DNA of 64,000 nucleotides from Thermoanaerobaculia bacterium (GTDB lineage Bacteria; Acidobacteriota; Thermoanaerobaculia; UBA5066), in NCBI GenBank assembly GCA_963816185.1, contig CAWFJJ010000025.1, forward strand, positions 192,001 through 256,000, given 5' to 3'. This document shows, piece after piece, positions 6,898-18,783 of this stretch; the first letter of the stretch is position 1, and every line of letters starts with the position of its first letter. A model generated the notes under the pieces. That model saw only the letters and a list, made by a program, of their open reading frames with translations, was not told the DNA's origin and did no database searches. A program made the position numbers and the translations under genes.

Positions 6898-7440
6898 ATG
6901 AATTTCGATCTCGATTTGTCGATCGGCGTGCTCGAGCGCACCTCCGGCGCGCTGAAGGCTCTTCTCGGCGGCCTCGCCGAGCCGTGGGTGCGGGGTACGG
7001 AAGGTCCCGACACTTTCAGCGCGTTCGACGTGGTGGGGCATCTCATCGACGGAGAGGAGACGGACTGGATCGTGCGCGCCCGGATCATTCTTGCGAGGGG
7101 AGAGAATCCGCGCTTCGAACCGTTCGACCGGTTTCGCCACCGTACGCGAAACGCGGGACGGTCGCTCGCTTCGCTGCTCGATGAGCTCGAGGGGTTGAGG
7201 GCCGCGAACCTGACGCTGCTTCGATCCTGGCGGCTTTCGGCTTCGGATCTCGATCTGCCCGGCATGCACCCGAGCCTGGGTGGCGTCACTCTTCGGGAGC
7301 TGCTCGCCGCGTGGGTCGTCCACGACCTCGAGCACATCGCGCAGATCTCCCGCGTGATAGCGAAGCAATATGGAGACCAGGTCGGCCCGTGGGTGCCGTT
7401 CCTGCCTGTCCTCACGGATCACCCCGTGCCGCGGTCGTAG
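6898..7440 (+). CDS. DinB/YfiT family metal-binding protein
   Basis: SD GGAGG then ATG 6898. His triad in VVGHLIDGE and WVVHDLEH. Confidence 0.85.
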   Translation: MNFDLDLSIGVLERTSGALKALLGGLAEPWVRGTEGPDTFSAFDVVGHLIDGEETDWIVRARIILARGENPRFEPFDRFRHRTRNAGRSLASLLDELEGLRAANLTLLRSWRLSASDLDLPGMHPSLGGVTLRELLAAWVVHDLEHIAQISRVIAKQYGDQVGPWVPFLPVLTDHPVPRS

Positions 7441-7457
7441 GCCGGAATCCCTCCCGC

Positions 7458-8117
7458 ATGCTCACCGACGACATTCCTCCGGCCCGGCTCCCACGCCCGC
7501 TCGACCCGGTGGAGGTCCGCATTCTCGGGGCGCTCCTCGAGAAACAGCAGGCGACACCGGAGTACTACCCGCTCACCCTCAACGCGCTCGTCGCGGCATG
7601 CAACCAGAAGTCGAACCGCGACCCGGTCACGGAGCTTTCCGCGGGCGAGGTCGAGTCCGCGCTCGACAGCCTCCGCAAGCTCGTCTTCGTCTGGAAGGCG
7701 GGCGGGTCGCGCGTCGAGAGATGGGAGCAGAACGTCGAGCGTGCATGGCGCCTCGACGCCGCGACGAAGGCGGTGATGACGCTTCTCCTCCTGCGCGGGG
7801 CGCAGACGCCGGGCGAGCTGCGCGCGCGGAGCGAACGGCTGCACCCGTTCGCAATGCTCGGCGAGGTCGAGTCCGCGCTCGCGAAGCTCGCGGACGGCCC
7901 GGACCCGCTCGTCGGCGAGCTGCCCCGCGCCCCCGGTCAGAAGGAAGCGCGCTGGGCGCATCTCGCGGGCGGCCCCGTGAAGGACGTCGTACCCGCTTCA
8001 AGCCCGCACGTCGAAAGGTCCGACCCTCTCGCATCCCGCGTCGCTCTGCTCGAAGAACAGGTGGCGGCGCTGTCTCGCGAGCTCTCGGACCTGAAGAGAA
8101 GGCTCGGAGAACGCTGA
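7458..8117 (+). CDS. YceH/DUF480 family protein
   Basis: EVRILGALLEKQQATPEYYPLTLNALVAACNQKSNRDPV and LLLRGAQTPGELR; C-terminal coiled coil. Confidence 0.9.
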   Translation: MLTDDIPPARLPRPLDPVEVRILGALLEKQQATPEYYPLTLNALVAACNQKSNRDPVTELSAGEVESALDSLRKLVFVWKAGGSRVERWEQNVERAWRLDAATKAVMTLLLLRGAQTPGELRARSERLHPFAMLGEVESALAKLADGPDPLVGELPRAPGQKEARWAHLAGGPVKDVVPASSPHVERSDPLASRVALLEEQVAALSRELSDLKRRLGER

Positions 8118-8128
8118 CTCTGCGGGTT

Positions 8129-8518
8129 TCACCGTACGTCGGAGCCGTTCTCGACCTCGAGCTCGTTGTAGATCATGGCGACGCCCTTGACGGAGCTCAC
8201 GAGCTTGCCGGCGGCCGAACGATCGGCTTCGTTGGCCACCCGGCCCGACAGTCTGACGAGGCCCTTCGCTGGATTGACTTCCACCTTCGCAACCCTCGAA
8301 AAGCGGGCGTCCCTCTCGAGTTTCGCTTTCACCGCGATCTCCATGTCGGCGCCATCCCTCTTCGGACCGAGGGATTGCGTCGTTTCCTTCGAAAAAGAAG
8401 CCAGGAACCTGCGGTCGTGCGATGCGACGCGCGTCTTCAGCATCGGCTGCGACGAAGCACGTGGAGCGACCAGGGCGGCGAGGGTGAACATCATGGCGGC
8501 GATGGCGGCGCGTGACAC
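8129..8518 (-). CDS. Secreted BON-domain protein
   Basis: SD AAGGAGG then GTG 8518. Signal peptide; GLVRLSGRV...SVKGVAMIYNELEV. Confidence 0.8.
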   Translation of the reverse strand: MSRAAIAAMMFTLAALVAPRASSQPMLKTRVASHDRRFLASFSKETTQSLGPKRDGADMEIAVKAKLERDARFSRVAKVEVNPAKGLVRLSGRVANEADRSAAGKLVSSVKGVAMIYNELEVENGSDVR

Positions 8519-8647
8519 GGGACCCCTCCTTGCGTTTCCCGGGAAGGAAATCCTTCCCTTCGTCACACAACGCAATGCGGGTGCCAGTGGACGGCTCGAC
8601 CGGCTTGAAAGCGTTCCGTCAGCCGAGGCAGTTCGGAGGCCGCGTTG

Positions 8648-9238
8648 CTACGCGTTCTTGACCGGCTTGATCTCCCCGGTCGACATGTCGTAGACCCAGC
8701 CGTGGACGTTCAGCTTCTTCTCCCGGGTGGCCCTCTTGACGAATGGAAACTCGCGGAGGTGCTCGAGCTGGAGCCGGACGTTCTCCTCCACGATCAGCCG
8801 CATCCGCTGCTCCTTCGGCATCTCGATGTGGAGCGACCTGATCTTCTCGTCGATCCGCTCGCGCGCCTTGAAGGCGTTCATCAGCCAGATCGGAACGTAT
8901 TTGTACTCGCTCTCGTCGTCGTCGAGCGCCTCGATTCCCCCGCATTCGTAGTGACCGCAGATGACGATGTCCGGGATCTTCAGGTGGCTGATGGAGAACT
9001 CCAGGACGGCGGCCAGGTTCCAGTCGTTCGTCGCGACGACGTTTCCGACGTTCCGGTGGACGAAGACCTCCCCCGGTCGCGTCGACGTGATGCTGTTGAC
9101 GGGTGCGCGGGAATCGGAGCAGCTGATCCAGAGAACCGTCGGCTGCTGTCCCTTTGAGAGGGACATGAAGAACTCCCGTTCCTTCTCGAAGGTCTCCGCC
9201 ACGAAACGGCGGTTTCCTTCCAGGAGTGCCGAAATCAT
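8648..9238 (-). CDS. can: Beta-class carbonic anhydrase
   Basis: Zn ligands in CSDSR and GHYECGG; GEVFVHRNVGN; HGWVYD. Confidence 0.93.
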   Translation of the reverse strand: MISALLEGNRRFVAETFEKEREFFMSLSKGQQPTVLWISCSDSRAPVNSITSTRPGEVFVHRNVGNVVATNDWNLAAVLEFSISHLKIPDIVICGHYECGGIEALDDDESEYKYVPIWLMNAFKARERIDEKIRSLHIEMPKEQRMRLIVEENVRLQLEHLREFPFVKRATREKKLNVHGWVYDMSTGEIKPVKNA

Positions 9239-9265
9239 CTTGTACCTCGACCCAGGATCTTATCT

Positions 9266-9619
9266 TCAGGTCGGCGGCTCGGCTCCCCGGACGCGTTCCT
9301 CCAGCCTCGTGCGGCCGGCCCCGAGCGCCTTCGAGAGCGCCTGTACCGCGGTGCGGGCGCGCAACGGGTCGCCGCACGTGAAGAGGTCCACCGCCGCCTC
9401 GCCGCGCTCGGGCCAGGTGTGGATCGTGAGGTGCGACTCGGAGATCACGACGACGCCGCTGACGCCCTGCGGGCTGAGGCGATGGATGTGGATGCCGAGC
9501 ACCTTCGCGCCCATCTCCCGGACGGCCTCGACGAGCAGCGTCTCGACGAGGACCGGGTCGTCGAGCGTGGCGAACGGCGCGCCCGCGACGTCGAGGAGGA
9601 AGTGGAGGCCGAGACTCAT
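9266..9619 (-). CDS. speD: S-adenosylmethionine decarboxylase proenzyme (pyruvoyl, SpeD/SpeH type)
   Basis: C-terminal part of ORF 9266..10678, true start ATG 9619: GVSGVVVISESHLTIHTWPE...DLFTCG. Start overlaps the upstream stop (ATGA). Confidence 0.92.
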   Translation of the reverse strand: MSLGLHFLLDVAGAPFATLDDPVLVETLLVEAVREMGAKVLGIHIHRLSPQGVSGVVVISESHLTIHTWPERGEAAVDLFTCGDPLRARTAVQALSKALGAGRTRLEERVRGAEPPT

Positions 9620-10701
9620 CGGATTCCCAGCGCCTCGACTGTACCCCGGTTCTCGGGCCGCACCTTCCAGAGGAACGCGTCCCACACGTAATGCGTGGCC
9701 TGGGGAAGAGCGAGGAGAGGCACGATCAGGGCGAGAAGCAGTGCGCCGGGGTCGAGCGCGGGCCCCGGAAAGAGCGCGGCGTGGTCGTGCCAGACGAGAC
9801 GGTCCCAGCCCCATTCTTCGGCGAACGCGACGAGGAGAAGGGGCGCGAGGAAGAAGACGAGCTTCGGCGCCATCCGGTCCGCGAAGGACGGAGAGTCGCC
9901 CGCCTCGCGGCGCGCTTCGGCGCGCGATCTCGACGTGAACCACACGAGGCCCATGTACGGAATGCCGTGGACGAAGACGTTCGTCACCGTGAACGCGTAA
10001 TCCGAATCGAAGACGACGATGCCGAGGAACCACGTCGCGGCCGTCGAGAGGACGATCAGGACCTTCCCCCACGACACCGGCCGGCCGGCGCGCGCGCGCG
10101 CGACCTCCTTCACGATCCACGCGGCGAAGATCCCCGAATAGAGGACGAGCGCGACCGTGCTGACGGCCTCCGGCAGACCGTTCACGAAGTCTCCCCTCAG
10201 GAACCACTGGAACCGTCGCGGGAGGTGCGCGTGCCAGAAGAGGAGCGGCGTGAGCGTGGCGCCGTAGATGGCCGCGGCGTCGAGGAGACGTCCGTCCTTT
10301 CCCTCTTCGTTCTTCCGGCGGTAGAGAGCGACCCAGCCGTATTGCTGCCGCACGAAGTGGAAAACCGCGAGATACGCGAGGATCCGCCAGAAGAAGAGAG
10401 CCGAGACGGAATACGCCGCGACTCCCGCGACCCACGCCGCGATCGGGACGCCGACGTAGAGCGCGAGGCGCACCCGCGCGGCGCTCCCATCGGCGAGAAC
10501 GCGCCACCCGGTCGCCCACACGTGCGCGACGTCGACGCCCACGACCGCCACGAGGTACAGCCAGGGCGGGGCGTCGCCGTCGAGGAGGCCGGTCGCATGG
10601 CCGACGCCGAGGAAGAGCAGGGCGAGAGCCGTCGAGCCTCCGAAGAGGAGGAGGTCGGCGCGCCGGCCGAAGAGCCACGGGGAGGTCACGGGGCGTCCCA
10701 T
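9616..10701 (-). CDS. Polytopic membrane protein with four spaced His motifs, function unknown
   Basis: About 8-9 hydrophobic segments; DVAHVWAT, FHFVRQQYG, VHGIPY, THYVWD. Confidence 0.8.
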   Translation of the reverse strand: MGRPVTSPWLFGRRADLLLFGGSTALALLFLGVGHATGLLDGDAPPWLYLVAVVGVDVAHVWATGWRVLADGSAARVRLALYVGVPIAAWVAGVAAYSVSALFFWRILAYLAVFHFVRQQYGWVALYRRKNEEGKDGRLLDAAAIYGATLTPLLFWHAHLPRRFQWFLRGDFVNGLPEAVSTVALVLYSGIFAAWIVKEVARARAGRPVSWGKVLIVLSTAATWFLGIVVFDSDYAFTVTNVFVHGIPYMGLVWFTSRSRAEARREAGDSPSFADRMAPKLVFFLAPLLLVAFAEEWGWDRLVWHDHAALFPGPALDPGALLLALIVPLLALPQATHYVWDAFLWKVRPENRGTVEALGIR

Positions 10702-10702
10702 C

Positions 10703-12376
10703 TCAGCCCGCGGCCAGGGTCGCGACGCGCTCGCCGCGCGAGGCCAGAATCGCCTCGGCGGCCCGCACGCCGGCGTCCTGCGCCTCCTCGAAAAGCGGAA
10801 GCCCGCCGGAGTCGGTATTCGCGAAATGAACTCCGCCCACCGGCGCGAGATGCCGGACCTCGCTCGAAAGAAATCCCGGCGTCGGGCGCGGCATCGCGTG
10901 GCCCCAGCGGACGACGTCGAGGCGCGTGACGAGATTCGGCAGGTCGCGGTGCGCGATCGAAAGGTCCGCGAGAGCGGCCGACGCGAGGTCGTCCCACGAC
11001 GCGGCGAGAAGCTTTGCGCGCGCGGCGGCCGGGGGCTCGTCCGTGAAAGGCAGGTAATACGTGAAGACGGTCGGCCCGTACTCCGGGCCGGTCTGATGCG
11101 TCGCGACGACGTAGCCGAGCGAGCGCGAGTCGTGGAGCACGTTGTCCCACGCGAGGGGAAAACCCGTCTCCTTCGGCCGCGACCGGAGCGTGAGGTTCGC
11201 GACGAGCCACGGCGCCCAGGACATCTCCTCGAGAAAGGCAGGCGGGGCCGCGCGCCACGGGGCGAGGACCCGCGCGGCCACGAATTTCGGCAGCGCGAGG
11301 ATCGCGTGCGCGGCCTCGACCGCGACGACTTCGTCGCGGGCCGCGTCCAGGACGCGCAACCGGACCGGCGAGCCCGGCTTCGGCGCCGGCACGACGTCGA
11401 ACACGAGGGAGGAGGCCGCGAGGCGTCCCGCGACGCTCTTCGCGAGGAGAGCGACGAGGCGGCCGTTCCCTTCCGGCCACGTCAGGAAGTCGGACGGGTC
11501 CTCGTCGTCGCCCTCTCCGGGGAGGCGCGCCGCGTTGTAGTGGACGCCCGCCCACGCAGAGGTGTGGTCGAGGTTCGAGCCGAAGTCGTCGCGGCACCCG
11601 TATTCCGTGAGCCAGAGAAGGCGCGGCGACGTGTAGCCGTGCGCGCGCATCCAGTCGGCCATCGTGATGCGGTCGAGCCCCGTGAACTCGGGGTCGTCCG
11701 ACGAGAGGCGCGTCGGGATCGCGAAGGCGCGCCGGCCTTTCGAGTCCTTTCGGGCGGCGAGGGCGTTCATCTCGAGGTTGAACCGCGCGAGCTGCACGAG
11801 GTCTTCCGGCGAAGCGCCGTCGCGCGGATAAAGGCCCGGACGCCACGCGTATCCGAAGAACAGCCGTTCCTCGGGCTCGCGGCACAGCATCTCCTCGGCC
11901 CACTCGGGCGCGCCGTTCGCGTCCCGTGAGACGAGCGCGCCGGCCTCCTCGAGGATGGCCTCGAGCGCGCGGTTCGGCGAGGCGGGAACGGGCACGTAAT
12001 GGGCGCCCCATGGAAACGCGGACACGTCGTTCGAACCCGAGAGGGCGGTGCCTCCGGCCGCGTCCTCGAGATCGAAGACGCGGAAATCCGTGTCGCCGGC
12101 ACGGGCGAGCCGCCATGCGGCGGAGAGACCCGACACGCCCGCGCCCACGATCGCCGTGCCGACGCGCTCCGTGCGGACGGCGGGGCGGGACAGGAGATCC
12201 CCCGCGCGAAGGAGGTGCCCCCGCGCGACCTCCGGGCCCACGATCCTCCCGCCGAAGGGAAGGCCCCGGGCGTTCTTCTTCCCGCACGCCGTCAGGGCGG
12301 CGGCGAATGCCGAAAGCGCGGGAAGGCCCACGAGCGACGCGATCGCGTCGCGCCGGCTCAGTCGAAGCGCTTCCAT
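10703..12376 (-). CDS. FAD-dependent amine-oxidase-like oxidoreductase with Tat/lipoprotein signal
   Basis: ATG 12376. SRRDAI twin-arginine, hydrophobic stretch, LTAC lipobox; IVGAGVSGL dinucleotide motif; FPWGAHY; RWGHAM; LPLFEEA. Confidence 0.87.
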   Translation of the reverse strand: MEALRLSRRDAIASLVGLPALSAFAAALTACGKKNARGLPFGGRIVGPEVARGHLLRAGDLLSRPAVRTERVGTAIVGAGVSGLSAAWRLARAGDTDFRVFDLEDAAGGTALSGSNDVSAFPWGAHYVPVPASPNRALEAILEEAGALVSRDANGAPEWAEEMLCREPEERLFFGYAWRPGLYPRDGASPEDLVQLARFNLEMNALAARKDSKGRRAFAIPTRLSSDDPEFTGLDRITMADWMRAHGYTSPRLLWLTEYGCRDDFGSNLDHTSAWAGVHYNAARLPGEGDDEDPSDFLTWPEGNGRLVALLAKSVAGRLAASSLVFDVVPAPKPGSPVRLRVLDAARDEVVAVEAAHAILALPKFVAARVLAPWRAAPPAFLEEMSWAPWLVANLTLRSRPKETGFPLAWDNVLHDSRSLGYVVATHQTGPEYGPTVFTYYLPFTDEPPAAARAKLLAASWDDLASAALADLSIAHRDLPNLVTRLDVVRWGHAMPRPTPGFLSSEVRHLAPVGGVHFANTDSGGLPLFEEAQDAGVRAAEAILASRGERVATLAAG

Positions 12377-13902
12377 TCTCCCTCGTAGGTCCTCACGAGG
12401 ACCTGGTCGTTTAGCCGGTTCACGGGGACGTCGTCGATACGCGCCACGTCGGGCCCGAAGACGAAGAGCGACGGGAGAGTCTCTTTCGAAAGCGCTCGCA
12501 GGCCTTCGGGCAGGCGCGTCCCGAGATTCACGGTCGTCGCGGACGCGAGGACGAATCCCCACTCCCCGAACGACGGCACGGCGATGTGATACGGCCGCGT
12601 CGAAAAGCCGGCGGCCCTGAGCGTCGCGTCCACGATCCAGAAGCTGCGGCGCGCGAAGAGGGGAGACGTGGACTGCACGACGACGACCCCGTCGGGATCG
12701 AGCTTCTTCTTCACGAGCGAATAGAACCGCGAGGTATAGAGCTTGCCTACGGCATAGCTGTTGGGGTCGGGAAAATCGACCACGATGATGTCGAAGAGAT
12801 CGGGCTCCTTCTCGATCCAGATCATCGCGTCCTCGTTCACGATCCTGACCTTCGGCGATCTCAGAGAGCCGCCGTTCAGGGCGAGGAAGAGAGGATGCGT
12901 CGTCGCGAGAAGCGTCATCGCGGGGTCGAGCTCCACGAGCGTGACGCTCTCGACCTCGGGGTGCTTCAGGATCTCGCGGACGGCGAGGCCGTCCCCGCCC
13001 CCGAGCACGGCGATGCGCCGGGCACGCGGCGCGGCCGCGAATGCGGGGTGTACGAGCGCCTCGTGGTACCGGTACTCGTCCACGGACGAGAACTGGAGGT
13101 GCCCGTTCAGGAAGAGCTGGAAGCCGGCGCGGTTTCGCGTCACGACGATGCGCTGGTACGGAGTCGTCCGGGCCACGACGACTTCGTCGGCGTACTGGTT
13201 CTCCTCGGCGACGGCCGTGAGGCGATCCGCGACGACGAAGGCGGCGAGGAGGATCGCCGTGACGAGTCCCGCCTTTGCGAGAAGGCCGCCCGGCGGCCCG
13301 ATCCGGTCCCGGAAGAGCCGGATCGACCAGAACGCGACGGCCGCGTTGAGAAGGCCGAAGAGAACCGACGTGCGCGTGAGCCCGAGATGCGGAAGGAAGA
13401 CGAGCGGAAAGAGGATCGAAGCCGCGAGCGCGCCGAGGTAATCGAACGTGAGGACCTGCGCCACGAGGTCGCGGAAGACGACCGTGTCCTTGAGGAGGCG
13501 CATGAGGAGCGGAATCTCGAGGCCGACGAGCGTCCCGATCCCGACGACGACGCCGTAGAAGACGGGCGGGAACCAGCGCGGCGACGAGAAGGCGAAGAAG
13601 AGCATCGGCGCGGAGAGGCCGCCGAGGAGCGCGACGCCGATCTCGGTCTCCACGAATCGCCGCGCGACCCCGCGCACGACGAAGCGGGAGAGAAACGCGC
13701 CGAGGCCGAGAGCCGTGAGGTAGATCCCGATGACGAGGGAGAACTGCGTGACCGAGTCGCCGAGGAGATAGCTCGCGAGAGCTCCGGCGACGAGCTCGTA
13801 GACGAGACCGCACGACGCGATCGCGAGGACCGTGAGGTAGACGGGTCCCGGCCGGAGGGCGGGCACCGCCTCAGGGGCGGCGCTTCCCTCTCGGTCGCCC
13901 AT
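12358..13902 (-). CDS. Membrane-fused polyamine aminopropyltransferase (spermidine synthase-like)
   Basis: Seven N-terminal hydrophobic segments, then LQFSSVDEYRYHEALVHP, LGGGDG, VELDP and DFPDP. Confidence 0.92.
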   Translation of the reverse strand: MGDREGSAAPEAVPALRPGPVYLTVLAIASCGLVYELVAGALASYLLGDSVTQFSLVIGIYLTALGLGAFLSRFVVRGVARRFVETEIGVALLGGLSAPMLFFAFSSPRWFPPVFYGVVVGIGTLVGLEIPLLMRLLKDTVVFRDLVAQVLTFDYLGALAASILFPLVFLPHLGLTRTSVLFGLLNAAVAFWSIRLFRDRIGPPGGLLAKAGLVTAILLAAFVVADRLTAVAEENQYADEVVVARTTPYQRIVVTRNRAGFQLFLNGHLQFSSVDEYRYHEALVHPAFAAAPRARRIAVLGGGDGLAVREILKHPEVESVTLVELDPAMTLLATTHPLFLALNGGSLRSPKVRIVNEDAMIWIEKEPDLFDIIVVDFPDPNSYAVGKLYTSRFYSLVKKKLDPDGVVVVQSTSPLFARRSFWIVDATLRAAGFSTRPYHIAVPSFGEWGFVLASATTVNLGTRLPEGLRALSKETLPSLFVFGPDVARIDDVPVNRLNDQVLVRTYEGEWKRFD

Positions 13903-13906
13903 ACCG

Positions 13907-14131
13907 TCAGCCTCCCGAGACGGAGGCCGCGATGATGATCGCCATCGCGATCACGATCGACCCGATCACGATCCCGAGCGCCGTGTTCTGGTCCTCCTCC
14001 ATCTCCTTCTTCAGCGAGAAGGGCAGGAGCTTCGGCAGGATCGCGAAGAAGATGCCGAACAGGACCATCCCCAGAACCGAGAAGATCACGGTCGACTCCA
14101 CTTGATGCCCGTGCTGCGCCCACCATTCCAT
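13907..14131 (-). CDS. DUF350 small membrane protein
   Basis: ATG 14131 overlaps the upstream TAA. Two TM segments; KKEMEEDQNTALGIVIGSIVIAMAIIIAAS. Confidence 0.87.
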   Translation of the reverse strand: MEWWAQHGHQVESTVIFSVLGMVLFGIFFAILPKLLPFSLKKEMEEDQNTALGIVIGSIVIAMAIIIAASVSGG

Positions 14132-14298
14132 TACTTGCCTCCGCTCCAGAAGTGCCACGTCCGGTAGCCGCCCGCGTTGCGGGCTCCCGAAGGCAGCGTG
14201 TTGCGTTTCGTATTTCCCGCCATCTCCCAGCCCGAGAACGCCGCGAGAGAGTACGCGAGGAGAAGCGCGCCGCCGAAGACCTGGAAGATGCGTCTCAT
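14131..14298 (-). CDS. 55-aa membrane-anchored or secreted peptide ending in GGK (absent from the ORF track)
   Basis: SD AAGGAGG, ATG 14298, MRRIFQVFGGALLLAYSLAAFSGWEMAGNTKRNTLPSGARNAGGYRTWHFWSGGK*. The TAA overlaps the DUF350 ATG and the ORF fills the operon gap exactly. Confidence 0.85.
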   Translation of the reverse strand: MRRIFQVFGGALLLAYSLAAFSGWEMAGNTKRNTLPSGARNAGGYRTWHFWSGGK

Positions 14299-14308
14299 CG
14301 GGCCTCCT

Positions 14309-16396
14309 TCATTCGTCGTCCGAGTCCCGTTCCCCGCCGGCGCTCGTGAAGTCGCTGTCGGCCCAGCGCCGGCCCTCGAACGCGATCCTCCTGAACGCGA
14401 GCAGCGCCGGAACCAGAAAGAGCAGGAGGATCACAAAAACGAGATGCGAGACGTGCGGGACGCCGCTCGTGAGCTTCACGCGGAACGAGGGCGGCGCCTT
14501 CCCGGCGTCGGACTCGGGCTCGAGGCGCAGGACCCAGCGCCCGGCGGGAATGCGCGGTACGTAGATGCGGCGGCTCTGGCTGCCTTCGCTCCAGCTCTCG
14601 CCGCCGTCGACACCCGAATACTTGTCCGAGATCAGGTCGAACGAGAGGACCTCGCCGGTGGCCTCGGAGATGAGGTCGAACCCGACCTGGACCCAGGTGT
14701 TGTTCGTGGGCGCCCAGAGGTCCACGGCGAGATTCGCGCCTCGCTTCGTCTCGAACGGCTCCGAGAGGAGGACGCGAGTGGCCGAGAGCGCGGCTTCCGC
14801 GGCCGCACGCGCCGCGATAGGGTTCGCCGGGGCCTGGCTCGGGGTCGGGGCCGCGCCGCCCTGCGACCAGTCGGCCGAGGCCGGGCTCGGGCTGCTGTCG
14901 CGCGCGACGTAGATCACGCGCTGCGGGTCCGTGAGGTCGAACGTCCGGTCGTAGACGACGGCGTGCGGCGTGAGCAGCTTCGCGAGGAAGAAGACGACGA
15001 TCGAGGCAAGTGAAAGGAGCCAGGCGGTTTTCCACCAGAGATGGCTCGTCTCGGCGTGCGGCCACGGCTGGCAGGCACCGACGCCCTGGGGCGGCGGAAG
15101 CGGCACCTTCAGCGCGAAGCCCGCGGCGGTCTCCTCGGGAGGGACGTACGCGCCCTCGGTCCACGCGATCTCTTTCTTCGCCTTCTCCTTCGAGAGCATG
15201 CGCGGCGGCTTGACGTAGTCCGTGGCCTCGGTGGTCTCGCCGGTCTTGACGGCCCAGTAGAACTCGCCGAGGACGCCGGCGACGCGCGCCTTGCTGCGCG
15301 AGAAAATGCGATACGAGTTGCCTCGGAAGACCGCCACACGAGTTCCGTCCTTGACCTCGCCCGCGGGCACGGGCTCGAGGAGCGTGTAATGGCCGTTCGA
15401 TTCCGCGAGCCAGTGGTAAGCCTCGGACTTTTCCTCCTTCAGGAGGTACTCCGTCCAGAAGTAGTCCTCGCCGCCCGAGGAGGTCGTCTTCTGGAGGGCG
15501 CCGAGGATCGCGTACTTGTGGTCACGGAGCGTGCCCTCGGCCCCGAGCGGGAGCGCCGCCTTGAACGGCACGGCCGCGAGCTTCTCGAGGACCGTGAACT
15601 TGGAGGGCGGGCCTTGCTCCTTCCGGTCTGCCGAGCCGAGCAGCGAGCCGCAGAACGGGCAGGCGATGCGCACCGTGTTCGCGGGGTCCCTGAGCTGGAG
15701 GGCGCCGCCGCAGCTCGGGCAGTTCAGGGCGAGAGCCTTGACGGAGACCGTGCGGTCGGACCATGCGACGAGCTCCGCGATGCCGAGGCTCGCGAGCGCG
15801 ACCGGCTTGCCCACGTAGAAGCCGTCGAGGCCGGGCCCGTCGCCGTAGTCGAGCGTCGCGAGGCTGCCGTCCGTTCCGGAAAGGTCGGCATACCTGAAGA
15901 TGGAGCCCGGCGGGGCCGCGAACGGCAGCTCGCCTTCGGCGGAGGCGTATGTCGCCTCCCGGGCCTCGACGATGGCGAAGCTTCCGTAGGCTCCCAGGTC
16001 GAGCGTTTCACCGGGCTGGAGCTGCTCGAACGCCGGCACCTGCGGAGGCTTGACCGGCGTCATGAGCCAGAATCCACCCTGCGCTTCGGCGAGCCATCCC
16101 CAGGTTCCGTCGCCATATCCGACGTACCACTCGTCCCACGTCCCCTCGCCGGTCGAGAGCTGGAGACGCCCGGCGATGTGGAACGGGCGCGTGCCCTTTT
16201 GCGGGCGCGCGTCCATCCCCAGCTTGAACGGGGAGGACGTCGGGACGAGCTCGGCGACCGTTCCGATGGCCTCGAGGTCCGCGCCCTTGCGCGCGACGGC
16301 GGACTTGCATTGCGGACAGATCGAGACGAGCGAAGCCCCTGTCTGAAACCGAACGGGACCCCCGCAGTTCGGACATTGGGCCGCGCGCGCGCTCAA
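14309..16396 (-). CDS. DUF4178-like membrane protein with two Zn-ribbons
   Basis: CPNCG..CPQC and CPSCG..CPFC, each followed by a DUF4178-like unit (WDEWY..WLAE..GELPF; WTEYL..WLAE..GEFYW). Two TM segments flank a soluble domain; tail FEGRRWADSDF. TTG start. Confidence 0.82.
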   Translation of the reverse strand: MSARAAQCPNCGGPVRFQTGASLVSICPQCKSAVARKGADLEAIGTVAELVPTSSPFKLGMDARPQKGTRPFHIAGRLQLSTGEGTWDEWYVGYGDGTWGWLAEAQGGFWLMTPVKPPQVPAFEQLQPGETLDLGAYGSFAIVEAREATYASAEGELPFAAPPGSIFRYADLSGTDGSLATLDYGDGPGLDGFYVGKPVALASLGIAELVAWSDRTVSVKALALNCPSCGGALQLRDPANTVRIACPFCGSLLGSADRKEQGPPSKFTVLEKLAAVPFKAALPLGAEGTLRDHKYAILGALQKTTSSGGEDYFWTEYLLKEEKSEAYHWLAESNGHYTLLEPVPAGEVKDGTRVAVFRGNSYRIFSRSKARVAGVLGEFYWAVKTGETTEATDYVKPPRMLSKEKAKKEIAWTEGAYVPPEETAAGFALKVPLPPPQGVGACQPWPHAETSHLWWKTAWLLSLASIVVFFLAKLLTPHAVVYDRTFDLTDPQRVIYVARDSSPSPASADWSQGGAAPTPSQAPANPIAARAAAEAALSATRVLLSEPFETKRGANLAVDLWAPTNNTWVQVGFDLISEATGEVLSFDLISDKYSGVDGGESWSEGSQSRRIYVPRIPAGRWVLRLEPESDAGKAPPSFRVKLTSGVPHVSHLVFVILLLFLVPALLAFRRIAFEGRRWADSDFTSAGGERDSDDE

Positions 16397-16539: not shown

Positions 16540-18783
16540 TCAGGCTCCGGCCCGGTGCTCGGGGTAGAGGCGCTCGAACTCGGGGTCGCCGTGCAGGAAG
16601 GCGAGATCGGGGTCGCGGCGGGCCCAGTCCGGGTCCTTGAAGCCGGCGTTCCAGGCCTTCCGGAGCGCTTCCAGAGCCTCGGGTTTGTTCTCGAGGCCGC
16701 AAAACACACATGCGACGTTGTAAAGAACAGTCGCGTCGTTCGGGCGCAAGGCGATTGCGAGGTTCGCCTCCCGCGTCGCATCGTCACGCCGATCCAGGGA
16801 GGCGTAGTTGGCTGCGAGGAGAACGCGCGCGCGTGCATCCTCGGGAACCGATTTCAGGTGATTCTCCAGCGCCAGGACTGTGCGCTGGCGGACGTTGCGG
16901 AGCGTTTCATCCTTCCCGAGCGCGCCGAGGGCGTTCAGGATCGGGACGTAGACGTTGTAGTCCTGTCCGCTCGCCTCCATGGCCGCGTCCGCGGCGTTTG
17001 CAAGATCCTGATAACGCCCTGAGGCGAAGAGCACGCGGCCGAGGACGTAGTACGCCCCCTCGCAGTCGCTCTTGCGCTCGATGGCCTGGCGCACGCAGCT
17101 CGCCGCCGCGTCGTACTGGCTTTCGGCGTACAGGATCCAGGCCTGGGCGACGAGAGCCTCGGGAAGCTGCGGGCTCAGCGCGACCGCTTTCCGGGAGGCT
17201 GCCAGCGCCCGTTCCAGCCAGACGGGATCGCGTCCGTAGTGATAATGGGTCTGCGCGCAGACGTTCGCGATGGCGGCGTGGGCCAGCGCGAAATCCGGGT
17301 CCAAGGCCGTCGCGTTCTCGAACATCTGGAGGGCGAACTCGAAGTCCTGCCGCGTGAGACGCCGCGCGTAGCTCTTGCCGCGGAGAAAAAGGTCGTACGC
17401 CTGGAGGTTCTCGGTCGGCTTGGCGGCGAGGGCCGCCTCCTCCTGCGGCGAGAGCGTGATCCGGAGGGCTTCGGCGATCTTGCGCGCGATCTCGTCCTGC
17501 ACCTCGAATACGTCCTGCATCTCGCGGTCGTACCGCTCGGACCAGAGAGGGAAGTCGGTGTGCGTGTCGACGAGCTGCGCGTTGATCCGCAGCCGGTTTC
17601 CGGACCGGCGCAGGCTCCCCGCGAGGACGAATGCCGCGTTGAGCTGCTGTCCGATCTGCGCGGGCGTCACCTGCTTGTCGCGATAGGCGAGGACCGTGGG
17701 TCGCGAAAAGATGTTCAAGCCCTTGATTTTCGAGAGCTCCGTGATGATGTCCTCGGTGATGCCGTCGCGGAAATACTCGTCCTCCTTCACGCCGGAGAGG
17801 TTCTCGAAGTAGAGGACGGCGATGGACTTCTCGGCTTGCCGGGTTCCGCCCCCGCGCGAGTCGCTCTTCTCGGCCGCGCGCTTCTTGCCCGAATCCATGT
17901 CGCGCTTCAGGCGCGTGAGATCCGTCTTCAGGTCCGTGGCGGTCTGGTAGCGCAGGTTGCGGTCCTTCTCGAGCGCCTTGTCGAGGATGCGCCCGAGCTC
18001 GGGTGGAAGAGCGGAGTTCAGCTGAGCGACCGGGAGCGGATCCCGGTTCAGGATCGCGTCGAAGATGACCGCGGAGGTCTCGCCCGGGAAGGGCAGCGTG
18101 CCCGTCGCCATCTGGTAAAGGACCGTCCCGAGCGAGAAGAGGTCCGTGCGGGCGTCGGCGAGCTGCCCGCGCGCCTGCTCGGGAGACATGTAAGACACGG
18201 TGCCCATCGACGTTCCGGGCGTCGTGAGGTCGTGCTGTGCGCCGACGGTCTCCAGGAGGGAGACGGCGCCGTCCGCTCCCCGGCGCGCTCCCTCGATCCG
18301 GGCGAGGCCGAAGTCCAGGATCTTCACCTGCCCCCGCGCGTTCACGAAGATGTTCGCCGGCTTGACGTCCCGGTGCACGATGCCGCGGGCGTGCGCCGAC
18401 TCGAGGGCGTCGGCGATCTGGATGCCCAGGGCGAGCAGGTTCTCCGGGTCGAATGGCGGATGCCCCGTCATCATCTGTGCGAGCGTCTGGCCTTCGAGGA
18501 GCTCCATGACGATGAAGTGCTGCCTCTCGTGCTCCTCGATGGCGAAGACCGTGCAGATCCCCGGATGGTTCAAAGCCGAGGCGGCACGCGCCTCGCGCTG
18601 GAAGCGCTCGAGCGACGGCGTGTCCTGGGCGAGCTCGGGAGGCAGGAACTTGAGCGCGACGCGGCGGCCGAGGCGTGAGTCCTCCGCTTCGTACACGACG
18701 CCCATCCCGCCGCTTCCGAGACGGCGCACGACCGTGTAATGGGAAATACTCTTCCCGATCAGGGGATCCGTGGGACTGGACAC
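16540..18783 (-). CDS. Hanks-type Ser/Thr kinase with TolB-N-like and TPR domains
   Basis: LGSGGMGVVY, VALK, HRDVKPAN, DFG, YMSPE; SIAVLYFEN..DGITEDI; TPR helices; no TM segment. Confidence 0.93.
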   Translation of the reverse strand: MSSPTDPLIGKSISHYTVVRRLGSGGMGVVYEAEDSRLGRRVALKFLPPELAQDTPSLERFQREARAASALNHPGICTVFAIEEHERQHFIVMELLEGQTLAQMMTGHPPFDPENLLALGIQIADALESAHARGIVHRDVKPANIFVNARGQVKILDFGLARIEGARRGADGAVSLLETVGAQHDLTTPGTSMGTVSYMSPEQARGQLADARTDLFSLGTVLYQMATGTLPFPGETSAVIFDAILNRDPLPVAQLNSALPPELGRILDKALEKDRNLRYQTATDLKTDLTRLKRDMDSGKKRAAEKSDSRGGGTRQAEKSIAVLYFENLSGVKEDEYFRDGITEDIITELSKIKGLNIFSRPTVLAYRDKQVTPAQIGQQLNAAFVLAGSLRRSGNRLRINAQLVDTHTDFPLWSERYDREMQDVFEVQDEIARKIAEALRITLSPQEEAALAAKPTENLQAYDLFLRGKSYARRLTRQDFEFALQMFENATALDPDFALAHAAIANVCAQTHYHYGRDPVWLERALAASRKAVALSPQLPEALVAQAWILYAESQYDAAASCVRQAIERKSDCEGAYYVLGRVLFASGRYQDLANAADAAMEASGQDYNVYVPILNALGALGKDETLRNVRQRTVLALENHLKSVPEDARARVLLAANYASLDRRDDATREANLAIALRPNDATVLYNVACVFCGLENKPEALEALRKAWNAGFKDPDWARRDPDLAFLHGDPEFERLYPEHRAGA

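Follow-up and report, generated by a model that had tools for sequence, protein, structure and literature searches.

What accepts the aminopropyl group of the membrane-fused, spermidine-synthase-like enzymes of bacteria, and why should the operon of one of them encode a 55-residue membrane peptide ending in lysine? These questions are raised by a 64,000-nucleotide (nt) stretch of the genome of a Thermoanaerobaculia bacterium (assembly GCA_963816185.1, contig CAWFJJ010000025.1, positions 192,001 to 256,000 of the forward strand), called the window below, to which all coordinates refer. An earlier note, made from the sequence of the window alone, had singled out a small open reading frame (ORF) between the genes for a DUF4178 and a DUF350 protein. 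In this study, the ORF was found to be a real gene, and lysine was the last residue of its product in every homolog counted. Strict conservation in this microprotein is confined to its membrane anchor and to one Lys as the very last residue. The acceptor of the membrane-fused enzyme has been an open question since Li et al. (2019), and the terminal Lys makes it directly testable. We favor, with a probability of about 0.4, the reading that the microprotein is an acceptor tethered to the membrane, on the outer face of which the amine of its terminal Lys would be aminopropylated.

The microprotein gene and its terminal lysine

The gene and its translation signals are as follows (aa, amino acids):

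14131–14298, minus strand: 55-aa microprotein ORF (ATG 14298–14296, TAA 14133–14131)
14303–14309, minus strand: Shine-Dalgarno sequence AAGGAGG, 4 nt before the microprotein ATG
14129–14133, minus strand: TAATG stop/start overlap of the microprotein TAA with the DUF350 ATG (14131–14129), the A at 14131 being shared

The 55 codons of this minus-strand frame are translated as MRRIFQVFGGALLLAYSLAAFSGWEMAGNTKRNTLPSGARNAGGYRTWHFWSGGK. The product begins with MRR, continues with a hydrophobic stretch of about 20 residues, and ends in a flexible tail of Gly, aromatic, and Arg residues closed by GGK. In an AlphaFold2 prediction based on a 26-row alignment (A2, described below), residues 2–21 formed a helix with a predicted local distance difference test score (pLDDT) of about 90, and the tail was unstructured (pLDDT 55–63). 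This helix is the transmembrane (TM) segment and the sole one predicted; no coiled coil was found, and the protein has no Cys, hence no lipobox. The final base of the DUF4178 stop codon (TGA, 14311–14309) lies within the Shine-Dalgarno sequence, and GGAG-type ribosome sites occur at the equivalent place in relatives of the same genus. The overlap with the DUF350 start, either TGATG or TAATG, was preserved in all 20 genus loci. The strong Shine-Dalgarno sequence, the TAATG coupling, and the layout of the peptide had all been read correctly in the earlier note.

Among 20 distinct coding sequences from the genus, variable sites at codon positions 1, 2, and 3 numbered 16, 17, and 44 across the 55 codons, and the mean ratio of nonsynonymous to synonymous differences (pN/pS) was 0.31 over 190 pairs. 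Based on this codon-position skew and this ratio, the ORF is a real gene under purifying selection and no chance frame.

The microprotein of the window matched no family in Pfam-A (E up to 10) or NCBIfam (E up to 1). The 26 members of A2 gave scattered single matches, the best at E 0.0095 in Pfam and at E 0.00043 in NCBIfam (GatA bacteriocin, two members), and matches in the ESM Atlas were solely clusters of hypothetical proteins. The ORF had been described as unannotated; this holds for the ORF track used at the time but not for public collections, since the exact protein is already present at NCBI and ENA. Its close relatives there are titled "hypothetical protein [Thermoanaerobaculia bacterium]"; the gene is therefore called by gene finders yet nameless.

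Close homologs numbered 19, at 53–91% identity. A library of 1.84 billion sequences yielded 31 cluster representatives at E up to 0.001, of which the 25 small ones were used for A2. Truncated or frameshifted sequences (P0024, P0028, P0048) were left out, and long repetitive matches (P0027, P0029, P0034, P0038, P0041, P0046) were set aside as presumed low-complexity matches. The last two residues, G and K, are the sole invariant columns of A2, in which 25 of 26 members end in GGK; outside the end of the tail the body diverges to 35–58% identity. Two longer proteins looked like fused forms of the microprotein, but neither is a genuine fusion: one is a frameshifted read-through of DUF4178 and the microprotein, and the other is chimeric, its N-terminus being MutL-like. 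Also dropped were two weak matches in the window's own genome (L002 and L003, E 0.36 and 1.2), which lie inside long frames, and a single one (G035, E 0.0088) from a different family of the order, which covers positions 2–30 in a 335-aa frame.

Terminal residues were counted in 109 profile-detected small ORFs, which represent 104 distinct sequences at 108 distinct loci of at least five phyla. The last residue was Lys in all 109 and Arg in none, across Acidobacteriota, Myxococcota, Gemmatimonadota, Planctomycetota, and Proteobacteria, and nine further cases found by hand likewise end in Lys. As a background, the window has 629 stop-to-stop frames of 50 aa or more, and K is the last residue of 17. 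The C-terminal tripeptides of the 109 ORFs were distributed as follows:

GGK 98, YHK 4, SGK 2, FGK 2, RGK 1, LGK 1, HGK 1

Positional counts were made on the 99 distinct sequences of 70 aa or less. Position -2 was G in 95 and H in 4, position -3 was G in 89, and position -5 was aromatic in 86. The 11 residues before the terminal Lys contained no further Lys, and Arg made up 7.7% of them. A single terminal Lys where Arg is allowed fits selection for one amine. The tail after the anchor is of low complexity and spans 26–43 residues (median 35). With a divergent body and no predicted structure beyond the anchor, the protein looks like a tether plus a terminal group, not a folded domain.

The notion of a conjugation tag, raised in the earlier note, found no ligase in its support. 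Gly-Gly was never at the extreme C-terminus of the 109 ORFs (Lys follows it in 98), as it would be in a ubiquitin-like or Pup-type tag, and no ligase family was present in the operon.

Synteny and the operon

Within the genus, the microprotein was found in 22 of 24 relatives, both misses being incomplete genomes (74 and 91%). A profile search across the phylum found it in 35 of 401 sampled genomes. In all 47 loci of this sample (46 distinct), the match sits between the DUF4178 gene and the seven-TM (7TM) enzyme gene, and in 45 of them a DUF350 match was obtained by tblastn in the same interval.

Since loci must not be picked by the feature being counted, a second set was seeded on the N-terminal 423 residues of the enzyme instead of the microprotein, and the best 80 loci from named genomes were taken. 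They belong to Acidobacteriota, Gemmatimonadota, Planctomycetota, Myxococcota (Corallococcus, Archangium, Pyxidicoccus, Haliangium), and Beta- and Gammaproteobacteria (Accumulibacter, Dechloromonas, Propionivibrio, Gallionella, Competibacteraceae). DUF4178 was present in 64 of the 80, and a TM-anchored small ORF ending in K lay directly downstream in 64/64. Its stop was placed between DUF4178 and DUF350 in all 51 loci that could be scored. One of the remaining loci is truncated and carries the small ORF only, and 15 have neither gene in the flank. Homologous loci that lacked the ORF or its Lys had been named beforehand as the outcome that would count against the earlier note; what was found is an ORF always placed between DUF4178 and DUF350 and a terminal Lys kept in 109/109 while the body diverges.

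Five of the 15 genomes with neither gene beside the enzyme were searched whole with PF13785, and all five encode a double-DUF4178 protein elsewhere. In each of these split clusters the DUF4178 gene is directly followed by a TM ORF, with the ends ...YHK, ...FHK, ...YHK, ...GGK, and ...GGK; in every locus with DUF4178, split or not, this gene lies directly upstream of the microprotein. DUF350 lies near the pair in Gallionella, Dechloromonas, and Accumulibacter; in the other two split loci, both of Myxococcota, none was found among the ORFs tested. The Gallionella metagenome-assembled genome (MAG) shows the order Band-7/SHOCT, DUF4178, K-tailed ORF (...TYHK), and DUF350 (L140:2038–5636, plus strand). 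The membrane module of DUF4178, K-tailed ORF, and DUF350 can be separated from the enzyme genes, since the 7TM enzyme of this MAG is on a different contig.

A gammaproteobacterial locus (L170) shows another arrangement. There, a 212-aa lipoprotein (8641–9279, minus strand; lipobox LIAGC) ending in SRGK is encoded directly upstream of the 7TM enzyme (7007–8563, minus strand), with no DUF4178 or DUF350 nearby (n = 1). It is possibly a "Ctha_1186-type" lipoprotein version of the lysine tail.

In the window, the microprotein is encoded by gene 2 of a tightly packed seven-gene operon on the minus strand. Around it, in the order of transcription, lie:

14309–16396, minus strand: 695-aa protein with a Zn-ribbon plus DUF4178 twice, then a TM segment, a segment of about 175 aa, and a TM segment (PF13785, E 7.7e-28, two stretches)
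13907–14131, minus strand: 74-aa two-TM DUF350 (YjfL family) protein (PF03994, E 1.5e-12)
12358–13902, minus strand: 514-aa 7TM-fused polyamine aminopropyltransferase of the PRK03612 type (NF002956, E 2.1e-195, over cut-off)
10703–12376, minus strand: flavin adenine dinucleotide (FAD) amine oxidase (PF01593, PF13450)
9616–10701, minus strand: 361-aa polytopic membrane protein (no Pfam or NCBIfam family over cut-off)
9266–9619, minus strand: S-adenosylmethionine (AdoMet) decarboxylase of the SpeH type, the final gene (PF02675, E 8.4e-34)

The zinc-ribbon matches in the DUF4178 protein are sub-threshold, and its TM segments were read by eye. The DUF350 alignment has a conserved loop, KE-x-E-x-DQNTA. 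In the aminopropyltransferase, whose closest relatives are Holophagales and other Acidobacteriota records, the motifs DEYRYHE, GGGDG, and DFPDP are invariant alignment columns. Its catalytic domain (residues 239–455) aligns with the Thermus thermophilus enzyme 1uir; none of the solved structures matched to it covers the TM domain. Residue R278, within DEYRYHE, is an invariant Arg in 38 7TM enzymes and is Ile in 1uir. It might bind the carboxylate of a C-terminal Lys. The oxidase gene overlaps the 3′ end of this SpeE-like gene by 19 nt. The N-terminus of the oxidase, MEALRLSRRDAIASL...LTAC, was read by eye as a signal resembling those of twin-arginine translocation (Tat; SRRDAI) plus a lipobox (LTAC), and the protein would be a putative exported lipoprotein flavoenzyme. 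The 361-aa membrane protein has several His-containing motifs and gave tblastn matches at 42–58% identity in 18 of 80 sister loci. A Pfam scan of 10 neighboring proteins identified no protease, cyclase, maturase, ABC exporter, RiPP recognition element (of ribosomally synthesized and post-translationally modified peptides, RiPPs), or ligase family in the operon and no PspA/CesT dyad.

A contig of 889 nt from a soil RNA-seq run (X3), about 91% identical to the window, spans 13660–14539 in one piece and reaches from the 5′ end of the enzyme gene through DUF350 and the microprotein into the 3′ end of DUF4178. Its source is a relative, and DNA carry-over is possible, making it a weak hint of co-transcription of these four genes. 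The RNA runs contained a small share of the sampled words (0.08–0.12), and uncovered parts of the stretch carry no meaning. Relative to the window, the contig has a 9-nt in-frame insertion at 14314, where the acidic tail at the C-terminus of DUF4178 is encoded.

A tethered acceptor and competing explanations

The column-averaged hydropathy of 38 enzymes revealed seven TM segments in the aminopropyltransferase. Mean K+R per loop was 0, 0.84, and 1.0 in loops 1, 3, and 5 versus 3.0, 3.76, and 1.82 in loops 2, 4, and 6. The stretch of 25 residues that follows TM7 carried 1.45 K+R versus 4.97 D+E. From the positive-inside rule applied to these loop charges, together with the acidic segment after TM7, we infer that the N-terminus of the enzyme is cytoplasmic and its catalytic domain outside. 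In the microprotein, mean net charge was +1.65 on the N-side of the anchor versus +0.31 in the first 15 residues after it, and the near flanks were more positive on the N-side in 71/109 ORFs, favoring an N-in/C-out orientation. It is plausible that the microprotein tail, the enzyme domain, and the oxidase share one side of the membrane.

In the acceptor model, the N-terminal helix would anchor the microprotein in the inner membrane beside DUF4178 and DUF350, and the flexible tail of 26–43 residues would display its single C-terminal Lys at the outer membrane face. The extracytoplasmic domain of the 7TM enzyme would then move one or more aminopropyl groups from decarboxylated AdoMet, provided by the SpeH of the operon, onto the epsilon-amine of this Lys, giving a protein-bound, membrane-tethered polyamine. 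The Tat-exported lipoprotein oxidase may act on the modification and perhaps remove it. That the Lys is the nucleophile, what the oxidase does, how the microprotein and the enzyme are oriented in the membrane, and how decarboxylated AdoMet gets to the outer face are all presumed here, the last being the weakest step. The model draws on the invariant and solitary terminal Lys and the divergent body, on strict synteny and on the genome-wide co-occurrence of the microprotein with the enzyme (64/64 loci with DUF4178 and 5/5 split genomes searched), on the topology counts and the export signal of the oxidase, on the intact catalytic motifs, and on the SRGK lipoprotein of L170, which forms a minimal pair with the 7TM enzyme alone. 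Of the analogies drawn in the earlier note, that of a carrier, or acceptor, is plausible.

Several observations weigh against this model, whose basis is sequence and prediction. Decarboxylated AdoMet is made in the cytoplasm, and a catalytic domain facing outward needs an unproven supply route. The earlier note had placed the terminal amine on the same side as the active sites of the transferase and oxidase; the positive-inside counts of the near flanks agree with this, but the charge of the whole tail, more positive than the N-side in 87/109, opposes it and leaves the topology ambiguous. In split clusters the microprotein stays with DUF4178 (and with DUF350 in three of five), apart from the enzyme, a pattern at least as compatible with a structural partner of these two proteins. 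No column of the catalytic domain tracks the difference between genomes with GK tails (57) and HK tails (8), a comparison of low power; the only enzyme columns separating the two groups are positions 85, 107, and 161, all in the TM domain or its loops. Presence in 35 of 401 genomes of the phylum marks an accessory system. A prediction of complexes among the microprotein, the enzyme, and DUF350 gave interaction scores from aligned errors (ipSAE) of 0.02 and 0.02 (mark 0.32); made without controls, it speaks neither for nor against binding.

The main rival is an unmodified, non-covalent subunit or tethered ligand, present in the membrane as a stoichiometric partner of DUF4178 and DUF350, which we regard as possible, if somewhat doubtful. 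Its terminal Lys, with both an amine and a free carboxylate, would dock reversibly in a pocket of the inter-TM domain of DUF4178, of DUF350, of the enzyme, or of the oxidase and act as a plug, pseudo-substrate, or sensor element. Translational coupling to DUF350 in 20/20 genus loci and the place of the microprotein directly downstream of DUF4178 in split clusters, where the enzyme is elsewhere, agree with such a role, as does the conservation of the sub-terminal aromatic/Gly pattern. However, a docking residue should sometimes be Arg, and terminal Arg was never seen among the 109. The exclusion of other Lys, but not of Arg, from the last 12 residues is more typical of amine chemistry than of electrostatic contact, and in L170 the K-tailed lipoprotein pairs with the enzyme alone. 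In a further alternative, which is unlikely, the enzyme would pass its aminopropyl group to the head group of a lipid, to part of the wall, or to a free amine, and the microprotein would be no more than an assembly or stability factor whose terminal Lys serves membrane insertion or proteolytic stability. The 7TM domain could indeed bind lipid, and the operon has the uncharacterized 361-aa membrane protein as well; yet insertion and stability signals rarely need one exact C-terminal residue across five phyla without swaps to Arg.

The strict C-terminal Lys also recalls Braun's lipoprotein Lpp, a small envelope protein that is lipid-anchored in the outer membrane, forms a trimeric coiled coil, and is attached through the epsilon-amine of its C-terminal Lys, on which its function depends, by YkuD transpeptidases. 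By analogy, a covalent bond from this amine of the microprotein to peptidoglycan would fasten the inner membrane to the wall, and the polyamine enzymes would serve another envelope role. The predicted periplasmic tail and the resemblance of the proteobacterial Y-H-K tails to the terminal Y-R-K of Lpp suit this explanation. Nevertheless, we judge it very unlikely, because the YkuD-type L,D-transpeptidase family (PF03734; controls positive in E. coli and six other genomes) had no match in the window's genome, which is 94.9% complete, or, within the genus, in 16 of the 23 genomes encoding the microprotein, eight of these 16 being at least 96% complete. The microprotein differs from Lpp in its TM anchor and unstructured tail, with neither lipobox nor coiled coil, and the strict linkage to an aminopropyltransferase would be left unexplained. 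A RiPP precursor, as also suggested in the earlier note, would be cleaved, undergo modification at its C-terminal end, and leave the cell as a natural product. The small size, the Gly/aromatic-rich C-terminus, and the tailoring-type neighbors (a transferase and an oxidase) are what one would look for in such a peptide, but the N-terminus is a conserved TM helix serving as membrane anchor and no leader, and the Pfam scan gave no protease, transporter, or maturase gene in the operon. Across phyla, moreover, the operon is kept in settings of envelope stress (PspA, Band-7), as described by Ravi et al. (2024; PMC11237479), and the Gallionella MAG has a Band-7/SHOCT neighbor. A RiPP precursor is accordingly the least credible of the explanations, with hardly any weight. 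Overall, what the earlier note had observed was confirmed, and its interpretation was partly supported.

Returning to the acceptor model, a wider form of it can be put forward only tentatively. The terminal Lys would be the physiological acceptor of the membrane-fused "spermidine synthase," the product would be a periplasmic (poly)aminopropyl-lysine, and the oxidase would be its eraser. Such a writer/eraser pair might set envelope charge or stress signaling in at least five phyla, with lipoprotein-anchored versions in PspA-linked operons. If this is true, the microprotein would be the first ribosomal protein substrate of the spermidine-synthase-like enzyme family in bacteria, and the "polyamine" operons associated with DUF350, DUF4178, and PspA would gain a chemical meaning. 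Even with an unmodified Lys, it represents an uncurated, widespread microprotein family missing from gene-family databases.

Known systems and adjacent loci

The proposed Lys chemistry has precedents. In hypusine on eIF5A and in the long-chain polyamine-modified lysines of diatom silaffins, the epsilon-amine of Lys accepts aminobutyl or aminopropyl units. These systems differ from the microprotein in being eukaryotic or archaeal, in modifying internal lysines of folded or repetitive proteins, and in using deoxyhypusine synthase or unidentified enzymes. We know of no bacterial protein substrate of an enzyme of the spermidine synthase family. The amino-group carrier protein LysW is likewise small and holds biosynthetic intermediates on its very last residue; it is a soluble zinc-ribbon protein that ends in Glu and uses the carboxylate. 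The only LysW-type match in the window is the sub-threshold zinc-ribbon of the DUF4178 protein (17.8 bits versus a cut-off of 27).

Gene clusters of AdoMet decarboxylase, a membrane-fused spermidine-synthase-like enzyme, and DUF350 were reportedly described in 2019 by Li, Kurihara, Kim, Liang, and Michael. In thousands of bacterial genomes, an active AdoMet decarboxylase is said to accompany a membrane-fused, spermidine-synthase-like enzyme, which reportedly fails to produce spermidine. By these accounts, the clusters have in common with the window a PRK03612-like 7TM fusion, a SpeH-type AdoMet decarboxylase, and the linkage to DUF350, and they are said to raise the same question of an aminopropyl acceptor other than putrescine. 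That work is not known to mention either a small protein or a rule of terminal Lys.

The operon type with DUF4178, DUF350, and the 7TM enzyme has already been published, along with variants that include AdoMet decarboxylase and polyamine oxidase (Ravi et al., 2024, mSystems, PMC11237479); in the same paper, Li et al. (2019) are cited for the "aminopropylation of other substrates" by this class of enzymes. As presented there, those operons share the core of DUF4178, DUF350, and 7TM enzyme with the window, and both have a slot for a small envelope-anchored protein. The operon of the window differs in having no PspA/CesT dyad and in its anchor, a TM helix without a lipobox Cys. The L170 lipoprotein ending in SRGK beside the enzyme suggests the same logic as the slot of those operons, which is held by the "Ctha_1186 domain" lipoprotein. 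We regard the microprotein as a new and so far uncurated form of that slot, in an operon that is known yet unsolved. The word "lysine" is absent from the main text of Ravi et al. (2024), and the literature searches, which did not cover Li et al. (2019) and the supplements of PMC11237479, returned no paper on a lysine-terminated microprotein or on protein aminopropylation in this operon.

A divergent group of gammaproteobacterial 7TM enzymes (nine loci, L160–L168) was also recovered, at about 30% identity and 564–607 aa. No DUF4178, DUF350, or K-tailed neighbor was found at these loci, one of which has SpeH adjacent, and the group appears to be a different system. In the window itself, the operon is directly preceded by the gene (16540–18783, minus strand) for a Ser/Thr protein kinase of 747 aa that has TPR repeats at its C-terminus.

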